A stretch of 64,000 bases of DNA, taken from NCBI GenBank assembly GCA_031270865.1, contig JAISWI010000094.1, forward strand, positions 8,001 to 72,000, read 5' to 3'. The translations under genes and the position numbers were made by a program. Position 1 is the stretch's first letter, and each line of letters starts with the position of its first letter. The notes under the pieces were generated by a model. That model ran no database searches and was not told where the DNA came from. It saw only the letters and a list, made by a program, of their open reading frames with translations. Positions 8,856 through 45,269 of this stretch are shown piece after piece. Source of the DNA: Oscillospiraceae bacterium (GTDB lineage Bacteria; Bacillota; Clostridia; Christensenellales; Aristaeellaceae).

Positions 8856-9881
8856 CTACACGTATATCTCCCCGTCGCCAGGCGCGGTCTCGCCTAAAAC
8901 GTACGCCTCAACGCCGTTCGAGCGCAGGACGTCGACCGCGCGGTCCGCGTCCTCCCGCGCGACTATCACTCCCATGCCCAGCCCCATGTTGAACGTATTG
9001 AACATATCGCGGCTGGATATCTTGCCTTCATATTGAATTCTGCTGAATATTTCCTGCGCGCGCAGCTCGCTTCTGCTGATTCTCAGCGAGAATCCCGGCG
9101 CGAGCGCTCGGGGCAGGTTCTCGTAAAACCCGCCGCCGGTGATGTGCGCGGCGGAGCGTACGCCTTCCACGGATTCCAGCAGCGCGGTCATCGGTTTGGC
9201 GTAGACGCGCGTTGGGGTGAGCAGCTCGTCCAGCAGCGGCGTGTCGGCCAGCAGCGTTTCCTCCGGGAATATGCCGCGAATCAACGAGAACCCGTTAGAG
9301 TGAACGCCGGAGGACGGCAGCGCGACCAGCGCGTCCCCGGCCCGCATGCCGTCCGCCGGGAGCTTCCGCGCCGCGTCCAGTATCCCGACCGCGAATCCCG
9401 CCAAATCGTACTCATTCTCGCCATAGAAGCCGGGCATCTCGGCGGTTTCGCCGCCCAGCAGGGCGCATCCCGCCTGGACGCACCCATCAGCCACGCCCGA
9501 CACGATACGCTCGATCCGCTCGGGGTCCGTCCGCCCGGACGCGATGTAGTCAAGGAAGAACAGCGGCCTCGCGCCGCAGCACAGGATATCGTTGACGTTC
9601 ATCGCGACGCAGTCTATGCCGACCGTGTCGTGCCTGTCCGCCAGTATCGCCAGCTTCAGCTTTGTGCCCACGCCGTCCGCGCCGGCGGCCAGCATCCTCC
9701 CGCCGCCCAGATCGAACAATCCGCCGAAACCGCCCACGCCGCCGACCACGCCGGGTGTCCGCGCACGCTCGATGTGCCCGCGCATCAGGTCGATCGCGCG
9801 GTAGCCCGCCGTAACGTCCACGCCCGACCTGGCGTAGGCCGCGGAGCGGCTGTCCTTGCCGCGATTGATTGTGTCAGGCAT
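8856..9881 (-). CDS. purM: Phosphoribosylformylglycinamidine cyclo-ligase (AIR synthetase)
   Basis: ...AYARSGVDVTAGY...GGFGGLFDL...ADGVGTKLKLA...; overlaps the purF stop by 8 nt. Confidence 0.95.
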   Translation of the reverse strand: MPDTINRGKDSRSAAYARSGVDVTAGYRAIDLMRGHIERARTPGVVGGVGGFGGLFDLGGGRMLAAGADGVGTKLKLAILADRHDTVGIDCVAMNVNDILCCGARPLFFLDYIASGRTDPERIERIVSGVADGCVQAGCALLGGETAEMPGFYGENEYDLAGFAVGILDAARKLPADGMRAGDALVALPSSGVHSNGFSLIRGIFPEETLLADTPLLDELLTPTRVYAKPMTALLESVEGVRSAAHITGGGFYENLPRALAPGFSLRISRSELRAQEIFSRIQYEGKISSRDMFNTFNMGLGMGVIVAREDADRAVDVLRSNGVEAYVLGETAPGDGEIYV

Positions 9882-11322
9882 TGCCCGCGCCTCCCGTCCT
9901 TATCTCAAGTTGTTTCTCAAACCGCAGCTTGCCCGGCGCCCTGGGCGGCGGCGTCGGGTAATTCCCGGTGAAGCACGCGCCGCAGAAGCTGCCGTGGCCG
10001 CTGTGGTCCAGCATGGGCAGGTCCTCCGCGCGGAAGTAGCCGATGCTGTCCGCGCCCAGTATCGCGCGAATCTCATCCAGCGAGTGGTTGTGCGCGATGA
10101 GGCTCTCGACGGAATCCACGTCCGTGCCGAAGTAGCACGGGTGCGCGAACGGCGGCGCGGACAGCCTGATATGCACCTGCGAGGCGCCGACCTCCCGCAG
10201 CAAGCGCGCTATGCGCGTGGTGGTCGTGCCGCGAACGACGCTGTCGTCCACCAGCACTACGCGCTTGCCGCGCACGGTTTCGGCCACAGGGTTCAGCTTG
10301 ATCCGCACGGCGTGGGCGCGTTGGGATTGTTCAGGCTGTATGAATGTCCGCGCGACATATTTATTCTTGATGAACCCGATGCCGTAGGGTATGCCGCTCT
10401 GACGGGAGTAGCCCAGCGCGGCGTCGATGCCGCTGTCCGGCACGCCCACCACCACATCCGCCTGGACAGGATGGTTGATGGCCAGCAGCGCCCCGGCCTT
10501 CAGCCTCGCGCCATGCACCGACGTGCCGTCTATCACCGAGTCCGGACGCGCGAAGTATATCAGCTCAAAGACGCACAGCGCCCGGCGGGGCGGCGTCTCG
10601 TCGTACGGGATGCTGGTCAGTCCCGCGTCCGGCGAGGCCACGACGATCTCGCCCGGCTCCACGTCGCGCTCGAACCTGGCGCCGATGCTGTCCAACGCGC
10701 AGGACTCGCTGGCGAACACCCATCCATCCTCGAACCTGCCGATACACAGCGGGCGGAACCCGTACGGGTCGCGCACCGCCATCAGCTTGCGCGGGCTCAT
10801 GATCACCGCGGAGTAAGCGCCCTTGATCCTGCGCATCGCGCGGCGCGCGGCCTCCTCTATCGACACGGACTGGATGCGCTCCTGCGTGATGATATAGGCC
10901 AACACCTCGGAGTCGCTCGTGCCGTGGAATATCGAGCCTTTCTGCTCCAGTTTCTCGCGCAGCTCGGCGGCGTTGGTCAGGTTGCCGTTGTGGGCCAAGG
11001 CCATGCTGCCCTTCAGGTGGTTAACCAGCAGCGGCTGCGCGTTGCTCAACTGGCGGCGCCCTGTCGTGGCGTAGCGGCAGTGCCCCACGGCCATCTCGCC
11101 CGATCCCAGAGAGCGTGTCACGCCATGGGTAAGCACGTCGGTGACGAGGCCGACATCCTTGCGCACGTCGATCACCCCGGCGCGGTTTACCGCCACGCCG
11201 CAGCTTTCCTGGCCCCGGTGCTGCAGCGCGAACAGCGCGTGATACGCCGCGCTGACCACGTCCGCGCCCGGAGCGCACACGCCGAATACCCCGCACTCCT
11301 CGCGTAACTTGTCAAAGATCAC
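9874..11322 (-). CDS. purF: Amidophosphoribosyltransferase
   Basis: (GTG)IFDKLREECGVFGV...LQHRGQESCG...; the GTG start shares 1 nt with the purC TAG stop. Confidence 0.95.
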   Translation of the reverse strand: MIFDKLREECGVFGVCAPGADVVSAAYHALFALQHRGQESCGVAVNRAGVIDVRKDVGLVTDVLTHGVTRSLGSGEMAVGHCRYATTGRRQLSNAQPLLVNHLKGSMALAHNGNLTNAAELREKLEQKGSIFHGTSDSEVLAYIITQERIQSVSIEEAARRAMRRIKGAYSAVIMSPRKLMAVRDPYGFRPLCIGRFEDGWVFASESCALDSIGARFERDVEPGEIVVASPDAGLTSIPYDETPPRRALCVFELIYFARPDSVIDGTSVHGARLKAGALLAINHPVQADVVVGVPDSGIDAALGYSRQSGIPYGIGFIKNKYVARTFIQPEQSQRAHAVRIKLNPVAETVRGKRVVLVDDSVVRGTTTTRIARLLREVGASQVHIRLSAPPFAHPCYFGTDVDSVESLIAHNHSLDEIRAILGADSIGYFRAEDLPMLDHSGHGSFCGACFTGNYPTPPPRAPGKLRFEKQLEIRTGGAGNA

Positions 11323-12053
11323 TAACTTACCCCTAGCAGCCTGGCGCTGATCTCGGCGTAAGCCTCCTCAACCCCGCCCAGGTCGCGCCGGAAGCGGTCC
11401 TTGTCCAGCCTCTCGCCCGTCTTCGCGTCCCAGAGCCTGCAGGTGTCGGGGGAGATCTCGTCCGCCAGGACGATCCCGCCGCCGGGCAGCCTGCCAAACT
11501 CCAGCTTGAAGTCGACCAGCGTCAGTCCCGCGCCGGACAGGTAATCCTTTAATATTTCGTTTATCTTTAATGAAAGCGATGATATGGATTCCAGCTCCGC
11601 CTCGTCGGACCAGCCCATGGCGATGATGTGCGATTCGTTGACCATCGGGTCGCCCAGCGCGTCGTCCTTGTAACAGTATTCGACGACCGTACGCTTCATA
11701 GGTACGCCCTCGGGTATGCCCAGCCGCTTGGCCAGCGAGCCTGCCGCGATGTTGCGCGCAATCACCTCCAGCGGTATGATGGTCACGCGCTTTACGAGGG
11801 TTTCGCGGTCGCCCAGCTCGTCGACCAGGTGGGTGGGGATGCCCCTGGACTCCAGCAGGCGCATCAGGTGGTTGGTCACGCGGTTGTTGATCGCGCCCTT
11901 GCCGGCGATCCGGCCCTTCTTCAGCCCGTTGAGCGCTGTGGCGTCGTCCTTGTATAACACGACGCACAACTCAGGATTGTCGGTGGCAAAAACCATCTTG
12001 GCCTTGCCTTCGTAGAGCATTGCCCCCCGGGTGAGGGCAGCTGTGACGCTCAT
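11322..12053 (-). CDS. purC: SAICAR synthase
   Basis: ...[17 protein letters not shown]...[12 protein letters not shown]...[12 protein letters not shown]. The true start could be the internal Met (MLYEGKAK). Confidence 0.93.
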
Positions 12054-12096
12054 AGTGGCCGCCTCCTTTATTATTCGACATTTACTAGCGCGGTTC

Positions 12097-12306
12097 TGTG
12101 GGTGAGGGTTTCACGCCGCCCTGCTTGGCGTCTTAGGGGGGAGTTCGCGTCGCGCCATCTAGCGGCTTAGGGGTGGGGTTCGCGTCGCACCATCTAACGG
12201 CTTAGGGGTGGGGTTCGCGTCGCACCATCTAACGTCTTAGGGGTGGGGCAAGTCCCACATCCTCTGCGGCAGAGGGGGGCTGAGCAAGTCCTACATCAAC
12301 AGCGGC
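12097..12306. repeat. Tandem array of about six 34-36 nt G-rich units in the purE-purC intergenic spacer
   Basis: Units begin at 12132, 12166, 12201, 12236 and 12271, with a degenerate copy at 12097. Units 12166-12200 and 12201-12235 (cttaggggtggggttcgcgtcgcaccatctaacgg/t) differ only at the last base. The units are contiguous, with no unique spacers. Confidence 0.85.
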
Positions 12307-12318
12307 GGGGGACGAAGC

Positions 12319-12828
12319 TCACTTTATTGGCAGGGGATACTCCAGCCTCACCTTCGCGTCCTTCTCCAAAACGGAGGCGCGGTTCTTGCCGCGAGCCGCG
12401 TCGAGCTTCGCGGCGAGCGGCGCGTCCGTGACCGCGAGTATCTGCGCGGCCAGCAGCGCCGCGTTGACCGCGCCGCCTATGGCCACCGTCGCTACGGGCA
12501 CCCCGCCTGGCATCTGCGCCGTGGATAGCAGCGCGTCCAGCCCGGCCAGCTCCCCGGAACGCATGGGCACCCCTATGACGGGCAGCGTCGTCCGCGCGGC
12601 CAGCGAACCCGCCAGGTGCGCGGCCTTCCCAGCCGCCGCTATTATCACGCCGAACCCCGCCTCCCGCGCCCCCGCCGCGAACGCCGCGGCCTCCTGCGGC
12701 GTGCGGTGCGCCGACAATATCCGCGCCTCGAACGGCACGCCCAGCTCTTTAAGCGTATCGAACGCGCCCTTCATCGCCGGCATGTCGCTGTCGCTGCCCA
12801 AGACTACGCCCACTGTCAAGTTAGCCAT
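12319..12828 (-). CDS. purE: N5-CAIR mutase / AIR carboxylase
   Basis: [19 protein letters not shown]...SAHRTP...AGKAAHLAG...PVIGVP. Confidence 0.93.
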
Positions 12829-12978
12829 CCATATTTTCCCTCCAAAACGAACGCAAGGGAGCCGGACACGCCCCGCGCGCCAAACTCCCCCAATCAGACG
12901 CGGGGCACGGCCCCGCAGTCAAGACAAACCATTTTGCATCGATCCTTTCGAATCGCGGCGATTTATGGGACAGGTACC

Positions 12979-13007
12979 ATTGTAACGCGAACGCGCGGGA
13001 TTGTCAA
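12979..13007 (-). promoter_or_regulatory. SigA-type promoter of the pur operon
   Basis: The minus strand reads TTGACA-atcccgcgcgttcgcgt(17)-TACAAT. It would give a leader of about 140 nt before the purE ATG at 12828. Confidence 0.6.
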
Positions 13008-13052
13008 ACGGGAGATTCATCCACACGGCGGCCCGGCATGACGCGCGTCATG

Positions 13053-13652
13053 TCATGTCGGCTCCTTGTTCCACCAGGCCTGCGGCAGGTCGATCTTATC
13101 CTGCGAAGCGCTTAGGAAGTCGTACATCCGCTCATACTCCGTGCCTATGGAGACAGACTCCACGTCCCGAAGCGGCATCACCGCCGGCTGGCGCTGCGGC
13201 CGCCCGAAGAAGTCGAACGCCTCCATCGTCACGCGCAGGTCGTCGCGCAGCTTGATCCGGCCCGTGTACGTCTCGCCCGCGGTCAACAGGCTTACCGTGC
13301 GCTGCTCGCGCCTGGCCCAGTCCAGCGCCCAGCGCAGCAGGTCCGCGTCGGGCGAGGCGGGCCTGGGCAGCAGCGGGGCGCGGTCCTCGCCATAGAGCCT
13401 GGCCAGCAGTTCCAGCCTGGTCTCCTCCTCGTCGCCCGTGTAGACCTGCTGCACGTCGCCGACCCGCCACAGCAGCCAGCCGTCGCGGTGTCCCCAGGGC
13501 GTCAGCGCGGACAACAGAACATGTTTCGCGTTCACCTGCTCGATGTACCCGCTGCAGAACGCGTCCGGGTCGTTAGTGTCGGTGTAGAGCGATACGACCA
13601 GATCGTGTTCCATCGCGCTGCGCATCTGGTAGACCACGAAACTGATCGGCAT
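13053..13652 (-). CDS. Hypothetical protein with two internally repeated modules of about 85 aa
   Basis: 199 aa. The start ATG shares its A with the methyltransferase TAA stop (TAATG), and GGGGGAAGG lies 5 nt upstream. Internal repeat: LVVSLYTDT..GYIEQV...GDVQQVYTG versus RTVSLLTAG..GRIKLR...RDVESVSIG. I recognise no family. Confidence 0.6.
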   Translation of the reverse strand: MPISFVVYQMRSAMEHDLVVSLYTDTNDPDAFCSGYIEQVNAKHVLLSALTPWGHRDGWLLWRVGDVQQVYTGDEEETRLELLARLYGEDRAPLLPRPASPDADLLRWALDWARREQRTVSLLTAGETYTGRIKLRDDLRVTMEAFDFFGRPQRQPAVMPLRDVESVSIGTEYERMYDFLSASQDKIDLPQAWWNKEPT

Positions 13653-17510: not shown

Positions 17511-17600
17511 GGACTCCCTCTGTCGCCTGAGGGCGACATCTCCCCCAAAGGGGAGACAAGAGGCTTGGAACGCCGCCGCCGAGGAGTTATGACGCCGCTC
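17511..17600. repeat. G-rich hairpin repeat element (copy B)
   Basis: Two hairpins: TGTCGCC-tga-GGCGACA (17521-17538) and TCTCCCC-caaa-GGGGAGA (17539-17556). They are followed by caagaggcttggaacgccgc..gacgccgc, which is about 70% identical by eye to 30930-31006. Confidence 0.6.
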
Positions 17601-27774: not shown

Positions 27775-27900
27775 GTTCCCCCGCTGTCGTTGCGGTGGTG
27801 GTAAGGCATCGCCACCGCTGTCGCTTCGGCGACAGAGGGGGTAACGCGAATCCCACCACAAGCGACAAAGGAAACAATGCGAATCCCACAGCGGACGACA
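27775..27900. repeat. G-rich hairpin repeat element (copy D)
   Basis: Two hairpins: GCGGTGG-13 nt-CCACCGC and CTGTCGC-ttcg-GCGACAG (27818-27835). They are followed by agagggggtaacgcgaatcccacca. gcgaatcccac recurs 33 nt later (27846 and 27879). Confidence 0.6.
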
Positions 27901-30878: not shown

Positions 30879-30904
30879 GGGTTGTTACCCCTTATGTTAA
30901 CGTT

Positions 30905-31190
30905 TGTTCGATGGGGAAGCCCCCTCTGCCACTGCGGAGGCGTCTCCCCCTATGAGGGCGACAAGGGGGCTTGGAACGTCGCTTCGGCGGGGTTTGGACG
31001 CCGCGATCGCGGAACTGCCCAGGCTTTGCTAGGGCGCAGGGGCGCTACGCTTCCTATACATTATTTTTCCAAAAACGCTCTATAGGAAAATAGCTGCGCC
31101 AGCCGCGCCCCGCGACTCCTAGGGAGCGATGCCGTTGTGGGGCAGAGGGGCCTCCACCGGAACCAGAGGGGCGGAACGCGCCCCCACCCC
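30905..31190. repeat. Composite G-rich repeat (copy E) plus an imperfect palindrome of about 95 nt, between pcrA and ligA
   Basis: 30930-31006 is homologous to copy B. 31029-31123 has paired arms CTAGG/CCTAG, GGGGCGC/GCGCCCC and TTCCTATA/TATAGGAA around an AT-rich centre. Confidence 0.6.
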
Positions 31191-31191
31191 G

Positions 31192-43013: not shown

Positions 43014-45269
43014 TCAGTTCGCGTTGGTGTCCGGAGCGGCGTTGTTTAGGATGGCGTTGCCCGGCGCGCTGCCGTTTGGCATAGTGTTGCCCGACGCGTT
43101 GCTGTCTGGGATGGCGTTGTCCGGCGTGTTGCTGTTTAGGATGGCGTTGCCCGGTGCGTTGCCGTTTGGCATAGTGTTGCCCGACGCGTTACTGTCTGGA
43201 ATGGCGTTGTCCGGCGTGTTGCCATCTAGAATGGCGTTGCCAGACGCGTTGCTGTCTGGGATGGCGTTGCCAGACGCGTTGCTGTCTGGGATGGCGTTGT
43301 CCGGCGTGTTGCTGTTTGGGATGGCGTTGTCCGGCGTGTTATCATTTAGCGTAGTATTGCCCGGCGCGTTGCCGCCCGGTATACCGTTATCCGGTGTGGC
43401 ATTGCCTTCGCCGCCGCGCGTGGGCATCCTGAACCCGCCTCGGGCGTTGCCGAACCCGCGCGTATTGGAACCCATCGCCTCCATGTTGACGGTCGAGGCA
43501 TCCACGAACCCCGCGCCACCGCTGGCGGTCTGCGCCTCGCTCGTAGAGGCGATCTCCCCGGCAAGCTGCGCCTTCACGCTTTGGGCGCGGAGCAGGCAAT
43601 ACTCCCTTAGCGCGGCCTGGCCAGCGATGAACTCGTCATATGTGCAGAACGCTGTCGGGTCCTTCTCAACGAATGGCGAGATCATCGCGATGGTTTGGTC
43701 GTACATCGCGGCAAACTCGCCACTGTCAAAGAAAGATTCGATCAGGCCCATGTACGTTTCGTGATACATCGCGGTGTATTCCGCGCTGGAGGCGATCCAA
43801 TCCCACATCGGGCGCGAATCGCTGGAGCCGTTGAGCAGCGAGTCTATGGGTGTGTTCACTGACGATGTAGCGGTATCGGCGGTTCCCGCGCCTATCGTGT
43901 TCATGTTGAACCCTCCACCCATACCGCCCATGCCTCCCATGCCTCCAAACGCGAGGTTGTAGTCCCACGGGATCATTGACAGCTTGCCGTCCTTCTCGTA
44001 TATGTAGTAGTTGTGCACGAGGGTGCCCGTGTAGCTGTCCTGGTTCACGGTGAAGTTATGGGCGGCGAAGTAAGATAACACCTCGCTTATGTCGAGCGTG
44101 GCCTCCAGGTCGGTTTGCTCGTTGAGTTTCTTCAGAGAGTCGATCAACCGGGTGTCGTCGCCGGACTTGGCGGTGAAGGCGGCGTTGTCGAATATCACGG
44201 AATAGCTGGCGGGGTCGTCGTCTGTATATACAAGCGTCGCCGCGCCGCCGCTCCTGCCGAATCCGCCCATGCCGCCAGCCCAAAGGCTGGACTGCGCTCG
44301 GTTCTGCCAGCGGTCCGCGAAGCCTTCGGGCATGCCATCGGGGAATAATTCCTCTATGTTTCCCGGGAATCCTTCTGGCATGTTGCCTTGGAAACCTTCG
44401 GGCATAGTCTGCGGTAAACCTTCCGGCATGTTCCCCTGAAAGCCTTCGGACATAGTCTGCGGTAAACTTTCCGACGTGTTCCTCTGAAAACCTTCGGGTA
44501 AACCTTCCGGCGTGTTCCCCTGAAAACCTTCAGGCATGCCTTCGGGTAAACCTTCCGGCATAGTCCCCTGAAAACCTTCAGGCATAGCCTGCGGTAAACC
44601 TTCCGGCATGTTCCCCATGCCGCCTCGTTCCCCGCCCTGGTTGATGTTCATGCTGTCGGGCTTGTATATCTGGCCGTGGTCCGCGCCGTAAACCCGCTTG
44701 GCGAAAGCGTCCTCTATGCCCTCAACCGCGAGGTACAGCCCCCAGTCCTCGCCGTTGACGGTAAGGTATATGAAGGAGCACAGCGGCGCGTCGGCGCCGG
44801 CGGCGGCCATCATCTTGTAGCTGACGAAGTCCTTCATGTAGGTGTTGTCCTGCGCGATGTTGTTAAGCGCGAGCTTATCCAGCCCCAGGTATGTCCGACC
44901 GGATACATAGTGGTCGAACTCCACCTTGAAGCTGTACCTGTCGGAATCCGACGAGGCTATGGTGGACAGCGACGAGTTGCCCTTGGGTCGGATGCCAACG
45001 TCGGATACCTTGCGACCGTCGATGACCACGGACGCCTGTATGTACTCCTCGTTCCGCGCGTTGGCCAGCATGTCCGCCCAGCCGCCTTCGTCCGCGACGA
45101 TGTCGATGGTGTGGACCCTGTCGCCGGAGAACAGCGACGCGGCGTACGGCGCGTCCGCCCGCGCTATCGAAACGCCCAGCGACTCGCCAGCGTAGAACAG
45201 GCAGGTTATGACGATCATCGCCAGCACGATGGCCAGGCATACCGCCGTTGTATACTTGTTCTTTGACAC
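43014..45269 (-). CDS. cotH: CotH-family atypical kinase with N-terminal membrane anchor and two low-complexity repeat regions
   Basis: MSKNKYTTAVCLAIVLAMIVITCLF... anchor. CotH core: RPKGNSS...YSFKVEFD...LNNIAQDNTYMKDF...HNYYIYEKDGKLSMIPWDYNLAFG. Confidence 0.85.
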   Translation of the reverse strand: MSKNKYTTAVCLAIVLAMIVITCLFYAGESLGVSIARADAPYAASLFSGDRVHTIDIVADEGGWADMLANARNEEYIQASVVIDGRKVSDVGIRPKGNSSLSTIASSDSDRYSFKVEFDHYVSGRTYLGLDKLALNNIAQDNTYMKDFVSYKMMAAAGADAPLCSFIYLTVNGEDWGLYLAVEGIEDAFAKRVYGADHGQIYKPDSMNINQGGERGGMGNMPEGLPQAMPEGFQGTMPEGLPEGMPEGFQGNTPEGLPEGFQRNTSESLPQTMSEGFQGNMPEGLPQTMPEGFQGNMPEGFPGNIEELFPDGMPEGFADRWQNRAQSSLWAGGMGGFGRSGGAATLVYTDDDPASYSVIFDNAAFTAKSGDDTRLIDSLKKLNEQTDLEATLDISEVLSYFAAHNFTVNQDSYTGTLVHNYYIYEKDGKLSMIPWDYNLAFGGMGGMGGMGGGFNMNTIGAGTADTATSSVNTPIDSLLNGSSDSRPMWDWIASSAEYTAMYHETYMGLIESFFDSGEFAAMYDQTIAMISPFVEKDPTAFCTYDEFIAGQAALREYCLLRAQSVKAQLAGEIASTSEAQTASGGAGFVDASTVNMEAMGSNTRGFGNARGGFRMPTRGGEGNATPDNGIPGGNAPGNTTLNDNTPDNAIPNSNTPDNAIPDSNASGNAIPDSNASGNAILDGNTPDNAIPDSNASGNTMPNGNAPGNAILNSNTPDNAIPDSNASGNTMPNGSAPGNAILNNAAPDTNAN
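43017..43400. repeat. In-frame 30-nt tandem repeats encoding the CotH C-terminal tail
   Basis: Encodes NTPDNAIPDSNASGNAIPDSNASGNAILDG... decapeptide units, with a higher-order period of about 90 nt (43040-43130 nearly repeats at 43130-43220). Confidence 0.85.
44321..44618. repeat. In-frame 24/48-nt tandem repeats inside CotH
   Basis: Encodes MPEGLPQAMPEGFQGTMPEGLPEGMPEGFQGNTPEGLPEGFQ... Confidence 0.85.

Follow-up and report, generated by a model that had tools for sequence, protein, structure and literature searches.

A 35-nt tandem array between purE and purC as a probable locus of a genus-specific interspersed repeat family

Why are purE and purC, neighbouring genes of the purine (pur) operon in an Oscillospiraceae bacterium, separated by a long spacer filled with tandem repeats of about 35 nucleotides (nt)? 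The window analysed here is a stretch of 64,000 nt (assembly GCA_031270865.1, contig JAISWI010000094.1, positions 8,001 to 72,000), in which the operon lies on the minus strand in the gene order purE, purC, purF, purM. We consider it likely that the purE-purC array belongs to a genus-specific family of non-coding interspersed repeats, of which it forms a diverged locus without a tail. It is most likely a worn remnant of a selfish or neutral repeat that has expanded again locally, carried as a passenger in the pur transcript.

The purE-purC spacer (12054-12318) is 265 nt long, and about 80% of it is occupied by repeat units. Tandem Repeats Finder (TRF) reports a block at 12132-12248 with a period of 35, 3.4 copies, 93% matches, and a score of 199. 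Ungapped repeat finding recovers four in-register copies at 12102-12248 (identities of 63, 100, 91, and 88%; spacings of 34, 35, and 35) and a second pair of 36-nt units at 12240-12311. Both methods agree with the first-pass annotation of this DNA, which had described about six head-to-tail units with degenerate flanks. Its finer points hold as well: two units differ by a single base (12171-12205 and 12206-12240, 97.1% identity), the period of 35-36 nt is not a multiple of three, and the units abut head to tail with no unique spacers. The 26-nt core of the unit occurs twice exactly, against zero occurrences expected from 100 shuffles. The spacer contains the following features.

12241-12312, plus strand: two purE-proximal 36-nt units of a divergent sub-type, GGGGTGGGGCAAGTCCCACATCCTCTGCGGCAGAGG and GGGGCTGAGCAAGTCCTACATCAACAGCGGCGGGGG, 75% alike.
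12261-12275, no strand assigned: hairpin CCTCTGC-GG-CAGAGG, read from the sequence.
12136-12170, 12171-12205, and 12206-12240, plus strand: three young 35-nt units, found by TRF, repeat finding, and weight matrix.
12101-12135, plus strand: degenerate purC-proximal unit, 63% identity to the reference unit, 15.6 bits, 24/33 consensus matches.
12054-12089, minus strand: remnant of an ancestral short spacer with the purC Shine-Dalgarno sequence GGAGG (12062-12066), from by-eye comparison with two congeners (G002 and G003).

The young units read GGG(T/G)GGGGTTCGCGTCGC(A/G)CCATCTA(A/G)CG(G/T)CTTAG on the plus strand, and the pur mRNA carries their reverse complement. Identities between adjacent units across the array are 0.53, 0.81, and 0.97.

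The unit is not private to this locus. The source genome (G000) is a draft of 2.91 Mb in 102 contigs with 61% GC. Because nhmmer profiles of the unit lacked the sensitivity for motifs of 30 nt and joined tandem hits together, the family was searched with an iterated 28-nt weight matrix (consensus TGTGGTGGGATTCGCGTCGCCCCCTCTG) and a shuffled-genome control. At 12 bits or more, the matrix recovers 312 units compared with 27 in the shuffled genome; at 16 bits or more, the figures are 250 and 4. The core GTGGGATTCGCGTCGC alone gives 247 matches at up to three mismatches, against 57 after shuffling. The 312 units fall into 140 loci. The first-pass annotation, which had proposed such a count, had noticed relatives of the unit at four other intergenic loci; the one at 27836 is real, being part of a stretch of matrix hits, but the number was far too low. 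At the pur locus, the four purC-side units are consecutive matrix hits at 35-nt spacing, with 15.6-20.5 bits and 24-26 of 33 consensus matches. The three young units score 17.7, 20.5, and 20.5 bits (26/33 matches), and the two purE-proximal units match the family weakly (5 bits; 22/33 and 18/33).

Placement was judged against gene calls from a crude codon-model finder (2415 genes, 85% of the genome coding), which recovers the pur genes but places the purC start 33 nt downstream of the first ATG of its open reading frame (ORF). Of all units, 275 (88%) are fully intergenic, and the 34 inside called genes are about the expected number of false positives. Convergent gaps hold 40 of the 106 gap-resident loci (38%), compared with 10.5% of all gaps and 19% of intergenic bases. 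Another 50 loci lie in co-directional gaps, and divergent gaps are under-used, with 16 loci against 27% of intergenic bases. Units in co-directional gaps show no orientation bias relative to transcription (62 against, 56 with). This distribution looks like that of tolerated insertions. Arrays contain 1-14 units, with a same-strand period peaking at 32-33 nt (range 29-35). Units are 74% identical within arrays and 57% identical between loci, a difference compatible with slippage or unequal exchange in which the central copies are the youngest.

In relatives, too, purE and purC are adjacent. Their spacer measures 265 nt in the source genome, 141 nt in G001, 43 nt in G002, and 37 nt in G003, the three congeners; for three other genera of the taxonomic family the lengths are 26, 11, and 20 nt. 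The first-pass annotation had proposed a comparison of this locus with related genomes, in which two congeners have 37-43 nt and the other genera 11-26 nt. Among 54 metagenome loci (PurC identity 63-73%), spacer length has a median of 22 nt and is 100 nt or more at three loci only; the closest relative in that scan is at 73%, and the set serves for the distribution of spacer lengths only. No exact match to the 30-nt pur unit was found among 185,579 species genomes. The last 36 nt before the purC start, including the Shine-Dalgarno sequence, can be lined up by eye with the short G002 and G003 spacers (GCTAAACGGTCAATATAAGGAGG...), so the insertion sits between the purE stop and this purC-side remnant, which it did not disrupt. 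Short spacers in congeners, other genera, and metagenomes together indicate a lineage-specific insertion followed by local duplication.

The array may have arisen as follows. An ancestrally short spacer would have received a module-bearing piece just past the purE stop, upstream of the ribosome-binding site of purC. The unit would then have been duplicated by replication slippage or unequal recombination, leaving three near-identical units in the centre and older, decayed ones outside; the identity gradient across the units is the reason for proposing this local step. The product is presumably co-transcribed with the operon as a C-rich, weakly structured RNA, and it would persist because its position is nearly neutral.

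What the family looks like elsewhere clarifies which parts of it the pur locus has kept. Its module of about 33 nt is species-specific and consists of GNGGGATTCGCGYCGC, CCCCTCTGTCGC, and a linker of 5-7 nt, with a core, GGGATTCGCGYCGC, that is highly conserved across hundreds of copies. Written out further, a species-specific 14-nt part (GGGATTCGCGYCG) is followed by a reiterated 5' flank of the tail and first stem strand (CCCCCTCTGTCGC); the second half of the module thus repeats the 5' flank of the core. Many arrays are followed by a conserved two-hairpin tail that reads CCCCTCTGTCGCC-TGAG-GGCGACATCTCCCC-TAAA-GGGGCGACAAGAGGTTTGGAACG in unit orientation, and a 25-mer from this tail has 100 copies at up to five mismatches. 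Twenty pairs of tails face each other at distances of 52-126 nt. Such pairs point to a canonical element of 150-430 nt, composed of modules(n), tail, centre, inverted tail, and inverted modules(m). One such element folds at -77.7 kcal/mol compared with -48.4 ± 4.3 for its shuffles (z -6.8).

Patterns of forward-then-inverted units are common across the family, and at some loci forward and inverted modules are joined directly through a CCCTCTGCCG...CGGCAGAGGG palindrome. The pur locus belongs to this tail-less kind: it consists of units only, almost all of them direct repeats. Its purE-proximal units form a sub-type distinct from the purC-side units and end in the CCTCTGC-GG-CAGAGG hairpin, which resembles the junction palindromes that link forward and inverted units elsewhere (e.g., C74:51726-51790). 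Further family loci lie in the window.

27793-27893, no strand assigned: a forward unit and two inverted ones placed around a GTCGC-TTCG-GCGAC hairpin, with matrix scores of 12.2, 34.4, and 28.1 bits, the stronger hits being 27833-27860 (34.4 bits) and 27866-27893 (28.1 bits).
17511-17600, plus strand: tail copy CCCTCTGTCGCCTGAGGGCGACATCTCCCCCAAAGGGGAGACAAGAGGCTTGGAACG, found by the tail search (C41:25539), with a sub-threshold match to the whalefall-1 RNA motif.
30920-30978, plus strand: divergent tail copy in the 313-nt pcrA-ligA spacer, read from the sequence.

The last of these makes pcrA-ligA another operon junction, after purE-purC, that the family occupies, and it allows the family to be followed across the genus. 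Comparison of the pcrA-ligA spacer (window 30879-31191 and loci L104-L107) shows 313 nt with a diverged tail in the source genome, 343 nt with arrays of G001-specific 33-34-nt modules around a tail in G001, and 625 nt with a tail in G002. In G003, where the junction is empty, the spacer is 49 nt long; in another genus its length is 29 nt. The layout of tandem modules around a tail is therefore common to the genus, and the module sequence is species-specific. A BLAST search with module and tail in 31 relatives gave matches confined to the four genomes of the genus, and the congeners align by the tail only. The exact core pattern (CTCTGYCGC-N3-6-GYGRCATCTCCCC) occurs 17, 13, 222, and 7 times in these four genomes and once in 147 other genomes of the taxonomic family; the reversed-pattern control gives 0. 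That lone 26-nt copy (G062:C10:30869-30894) lies in another genus whose relatives have none; transfer or bin contamination could account for it. The 222 exact cores of G002 represent a burst compared with 7-17 in its congeners. Among them is a tandem array of a unit of about 105 nt that encloses the whole tail (e.g., L009 140-450). Two hairpin variants, TGTCGC...GCGACA and TGCCGC...GCGGCA, are one compensatory pair apart.

Given its position, is the array read into RNA, and does it act there? Strong Pfam matches define the genes of the operon.

12979-13007, minus strand: promoter-like site TTGACA-17-TACAAT upstream of purE, 11/12 consensus matches.
12319-12828, minus strand: purE (AIR carboxylase), upstream of the array, Pfam PF00731 (AIRC), E 7e-58.
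11322-12053, minus strand: purC (SAICAR synthetase), downstream of the array, Pfam PF01259 (SAICAR_synt), E 1e-83.
9874-11322, minus strand: purF, strong Pfam match.
8856-9881, minus strand: purM, strong Pfam match.

The site upstream of purE is the sole promoter-like site within 11800-13200, and a scan of the spacer returned neither promoter-like nor terminator-like sites. Because the spacer has no promoter or terminator of its own, one can reasonably infer from the sequence that the array is co-transcribed in the pur mRNA. This expectation gives substance to a reading in which the array is a cis-acting element of that mRNA, either a processing, stability, or spacing device that uncouples purE from purC, or a sponge whose CCCCACCCC tracts capture a G-rich small RNA (sRNA) or an RNA-binding protein. 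An enlarged spacer with family-related sequence is also kept in G001, and pneumococcal repeats co-transcribed with genes are thought to influence their expression (PMC3049150). We nevertheless regard a cis-acting role as improbable. Folding of the spacer RNA, a check suggested in the first-pass annotation for the minus-strand transcript, shows no excess stability over dinucleotide shuffles on either strand (z -1.18 and -1.25); the pur locus folds weakly because it consists almost entirely of direct repeats. Rfam gave no matches in the whole window at gathering thresholds, and the covariance-model search likewise proposed for the spacer returned nothing at E <=1, including no purine or ZTP riboswitch or other known RNA regulator of pur operons. 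No ORF of at least 60 amino acids lies on the mRNA strand of the spacer. Spacers of 11-43 nt suffice in two congeners and in all other genera tested, and some 140 unrelated loci carry these units, in either orientation.

The tails speak in the same direction. Across 83 aligned tails, covariation was not above column shuffles, either for the two local hairpins or for an alternative long-range helix. Both structures pair in 87-88% of cells, a level that 74 and 159 shuffles out of 500 also reached. G-U mismatches are about as frequent as A-C mismatches, so neither strand is favoured, which argues against selection on one transcribed strand. A regulatory role of the array keeps a small probability but has no support. 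Among the roles that the first-pass annotation had put forward, a recently expanded selfish repeat is the one that finds support, given the genome-wide family, the empty spacer in two congeners and other genera, and the identity within the array. Its proposals of mRNA processing or stability and of a binding array found no backing in excess folding, Rfam matches, orientation bias, or covariation. As a side observation, the purE leader (window 12829-13007), about 150 nt behind the near-consensus promoter, matches no Rfam family, purine and ZTP riboswitches included. For canonical elements of the family, Rfam matches to plant and animal miRNA precursors (MIR1858 etc.) fall far below gathering scores and reflect long GC-rich hairpins only.

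A role at the level of DNA was weighed on similar grounds. The units could form a binding array for a host protein, such as a nucleoid organiser or regulator, or their GGGGTGGGG template strand could adopt long-loop G-quadruplexes (G4) that slow transcription between purE and purC. Repetitive extragenic palindromic (REP) sequences and the bacterial interspersed mosaic elements (BIMEs) built from them bind integration host factor (IHF) and gyrase. The strong conservation of the module core over hundreds of copies and the regular 32-35-nt spacing would suit a protein site, and three GGGGTGGGG tracts spaced exactly 35 nt apart are found at the pur locus alone genome-wide. That very privacy counts against the idea, the family consensus reading GGTGGGA instead, and a canonical G4 motif (loops of up to 7 nt) is absent from the spacer; a canonical G-quadruplex was rejected for this reason. 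The module also differs between species, which concerted evolution of a selfish repeat explains better than a conserved protein site, and no candidate protein was identified. Both versions of this idea are, in our judgement, very unlikely. Resemblance to the PurBox of PurR was rejected because the overlap amounts to a 5-nt GTTCG that is present in every family unit.

A repeat in a draft genome must also be asked whether it is real. The assembly is a metagenome-assembled genome (MAG), and collapse or expansion of short repeats could have produced the array or distorted its copy number. Its 102 contigs include several that end in family sequence, identical across contigs: the start of C45 (1-121) and the end of C70 (10153-10302) carry identical units, and C49 (1-171), C50 (1-171), and C73 (1-90) also end inside family arrays or tails. 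Such ends indicate that the family causes assembly breaks and that true copy numbers are underestimated. The pur array, in comparison, lies 12 kb into the window on a contig that spans at least 8001-72000. Its young units total 105 nt and are anchored by one to four differences, and the flanking genes are unique and in the expected order. A miscount of identical units is plausible and a spurious array is not; the artefact deserves the least credence of the explanations considered.

Several points weigh against the insertion of a mobile or selfish repeat. A Y1 transposase of the IS200/RAYT type (PF01797, Y1_Tnp), the REP-associated tyrosine transposase (RAYT) expected for REP-like repeats, is absent from the source genome and from the three congeners. 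Self-BLAST of the source genome found no multi-copy insertion sequence (IS), a result to be read with the reservation that a draft MAG can lose IS copies. No ORF lies between the facing tails of the 20 pairs, and 20 loci showed neither target-site duplications nor sharp termini, the outer modules simply decaying. The intergenic statistics, moreover, rest on crude codon-model gene calls. Finally, the enlarged G001 spacer holds a family-related segment, so the junction may have been occupied before the species arose and have stayed so, a history that would allow for a local function. That spacer (L001, G001:C30, 552-692) contains its own unit of about 46 nt, GTAGTTTCCTCCCGGTTAATACTCACCCTGGTGGGTGGCTCGCCCG, repeated twice and not found elsewhere in G001 by BLAST; the 3' part of the spacer can be aligned to a family locus of G001, scoring 37 where shuffles reached no more than 27. 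On these alignments, the junction may already have been occupied before the source genome and G001 split, or it may have received insertions on two occasions. Searches for an autonomous copy of the family found none. A likeness of CCCCTCTGTCGCT and TGGAACG to Tn3-family inverted repeats was dropped because the pieces are not collinear.

Two unrelated metagenome lineages (L032 and L036, JGI24698J34947 contigs) carry 123-128-nt AT-rich palindromic inserts at purE-purC. The junction seems to tolerate hairpin insertions repeatedly.

Other array-like systems were considered and set aside. A CRISPR array was rejected because the units abut without spacers, and a crude scan found no CRISPR arrays in the genome, the 20-mers that recur at 50-90 nt belonging to family arrays and coding repeats. 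CRISPR-like candidates at C49:7900-8305 and C56:1-400 are collagen-like G-X-Y coding repeats on the reverse strand at contig ends. A ToxI-like array of a type III toxin-antitoxin system (units of about 36 nt) was rejected, as no ToxN-type gene is adjacent and the units occur at about 140 unrelated loci. A tRNA-like 3' end (TTCG...CACCA) was rejected by eye for want of a T-stem partner. The window also contains tandem repeats at 43043-43372 (periods 30/60/90 nt) and 44364-44616 (periods 24/48/132 nt), with TRF scores up to 478. These are probably coding, since their periods are multiples of three, and they bear no relation to the family.

For annotation, the consequences are practical. The pur array should not be labelled as a riboswitch, an attenuator, or a CRISPR-like feature. 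Its copy number is likely to serve as a strain marker and is likely to be a source of assembly breaks. The roughly 140 family loci explain many long spacers that appear structured, including those that split the otherwise tight pairs purE-purC and pcrA-ligA, as well as contig ends. The finding at the pur locus itself is ordinary, and the more interesting lead is the family together with the wide distribution of its core.

The core of the tail, CTCTGTCGC-loop-GCGACATCTCCCC-loop-GGGGAGA, is present in multiple copies in scattered genomes of at least eight phyla. It forms a 45-nt two-hairpin module, (C)CCCCTCTGTCGC-loop-GCGACATCTCCCC(+0-3 covarying pairs)-loop-GGGGAGA, that is nearly letter-identical between phyla, and almost all genomes outside these scattered carriers lack it. 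Searched across all species genomes, the core pattern matches at least 119 contigs (including loci L108-L187), compared with a chance expectation estimated at 4-14 matches in 1.2e12 positions. Among the matches listed are Mesorhizobium, Rhizobium, Martelella, Pararhizobium, MAGs of Oscillospiraceae and other Clostridia, Ruminococcus flavefaciens, Subdoligranulum, Bifidobacteriaceae, Collinsella, Bacteroidales, Chloroflexota, Myxococcota, Spirochaetota, Elusimicrobium, and others. In 15 carriers tested, copies range from 1 to 37, with at least 7 in 9 of them, and the reversed control gives 0 everywhere. Examples are Mesorhizobium (37), a Bifidobacteriaceae MAG (28), Martelella (24), and an Oscillospiraceae MAG (20), and each carrier tends toward one or two loop variants of its own.

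Structure accompanies this distribution. GGGGAGA, the 3' strand of the second hairpin, lies outside the search pattern and is present all the same. A contiguous second-hairpin stem of at least 8 bp occurs in 57 of 83 matches, compared with 0.9% of shuffled flanks, and the upper stem varies by compensatory pairs (AC/GT, GC/GC, AT/AT, TG/CA, ATC/GAT). None of 400 evenly drawn high-quality genomes from the phylum of the source genome contains the core pattern, which in its strict form also misses diverged relatives. Horizontal spread of a mobile element would produce such a rare, patchy, high-copy distribution. Of 14 core carriers, only 7 have Y1 transposases, and none of 12 Y1 genes in carrier genomes has a core within about 1.5 kb. 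A literature search with the core string returned nothing relevant.

We offer only tentatively, and as something we doubt rather than expect, that the pur array could be a side product of hairpin elements of a class not yet described, one that spreads horizontally. If so, each host would surround the shared core with its own tandem modules, and non-RAYT machinery would recognise the core, move or copy the element, and form arrays of modules through reiteration of the core's 5' flank. A two-hairpin core in distant phyla without a link to Y1/RAYT, the one candidate mover family tested, raises a testable question, namely what copies such elements.

How, then, does the family compare with repeats already described? 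In Rfam there is a likeness to whalefall-1 (RF01762), a motif whose only known source is a whale-fall metagenome and which is classed as a likely sRNA (Weinberg et al. 2010, PMC2864571). The reverse strand of the tail matches its two-hairpin arrangement and resembles it in letters, with UCUCCCC-UUUG-GGGGAGA, next GUCGCC-CUCA-GGCGAC, and last AGAGGG. The tail copy at 17511-17600 reaches 27.8 bits (E 1.6e-5), below the gathering score of 37, and whalefall-1 was not among the Rfam matches at E <=1 in 17 scanned family loci.

[quoted passage not shown] The family differs in that it is not AT-rich, its ends are decaying tandem modules, and no target-site duplication, sharp termini, or parent IS was found. 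The inverted repeats and strong fold are features of the family and not of the pur locus, with its direct repeats and z of -1.2.

[quoted passage not shown] The pur array differs from them in its period of 35-36 nt, which is not a multiple of three, and in having no ORF. MIRUs with a variable number of tandem repeats (MIRU-VNTR; PMC3635867) resemble the family as minisatellite-like intergenic units of variable copy number that also occur inside operons.

REP sequences and BIMEs with their RAYTs (REPtrons) are, like the family, short, GC-rich hairpin repeats in direct and inverted clusters, extragenic, present in hundreds, and lineage-specific. Unlike them, the family lacks a Y1/RAYT gene in the source genome and its three congeners, and its elements are longer and composite.

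In layout, the pneumococcal BOX element offers a parallel. BOX (boxA-boxB(n)-boxC) is a modular intergenic repeat with a tandem module and stem-loop modules, and the placement of BOX, RUP, and SPRITE in the pneumococcal genome, which follows the pattern seen here for the family, has been taken to reflect insertions that survive where they are least harmful (PMC3049150). Like BOX, the family is modular, non-coding, intergenic, enriched downstream of genes, and present in 100-plus copies per genome, and it combines a variable-copy tandem module (1-14 modules) with stable stem-loop modules (the tail). Its tandem module, however, lies outside the hairpin core on one or both sides, not between end modules. 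The terminal inverted repeats (TIRs) of BOX resemble ISSpn2, whereas no related IS was found for the family. As the family is GC-rich and resides in Oscillospiraceae-type Clostridia, homology is not expected, and the two are compared by layout only. The family can be viewed as a GC-rich Clostridia counterpart of BOX/REP-type repeats.

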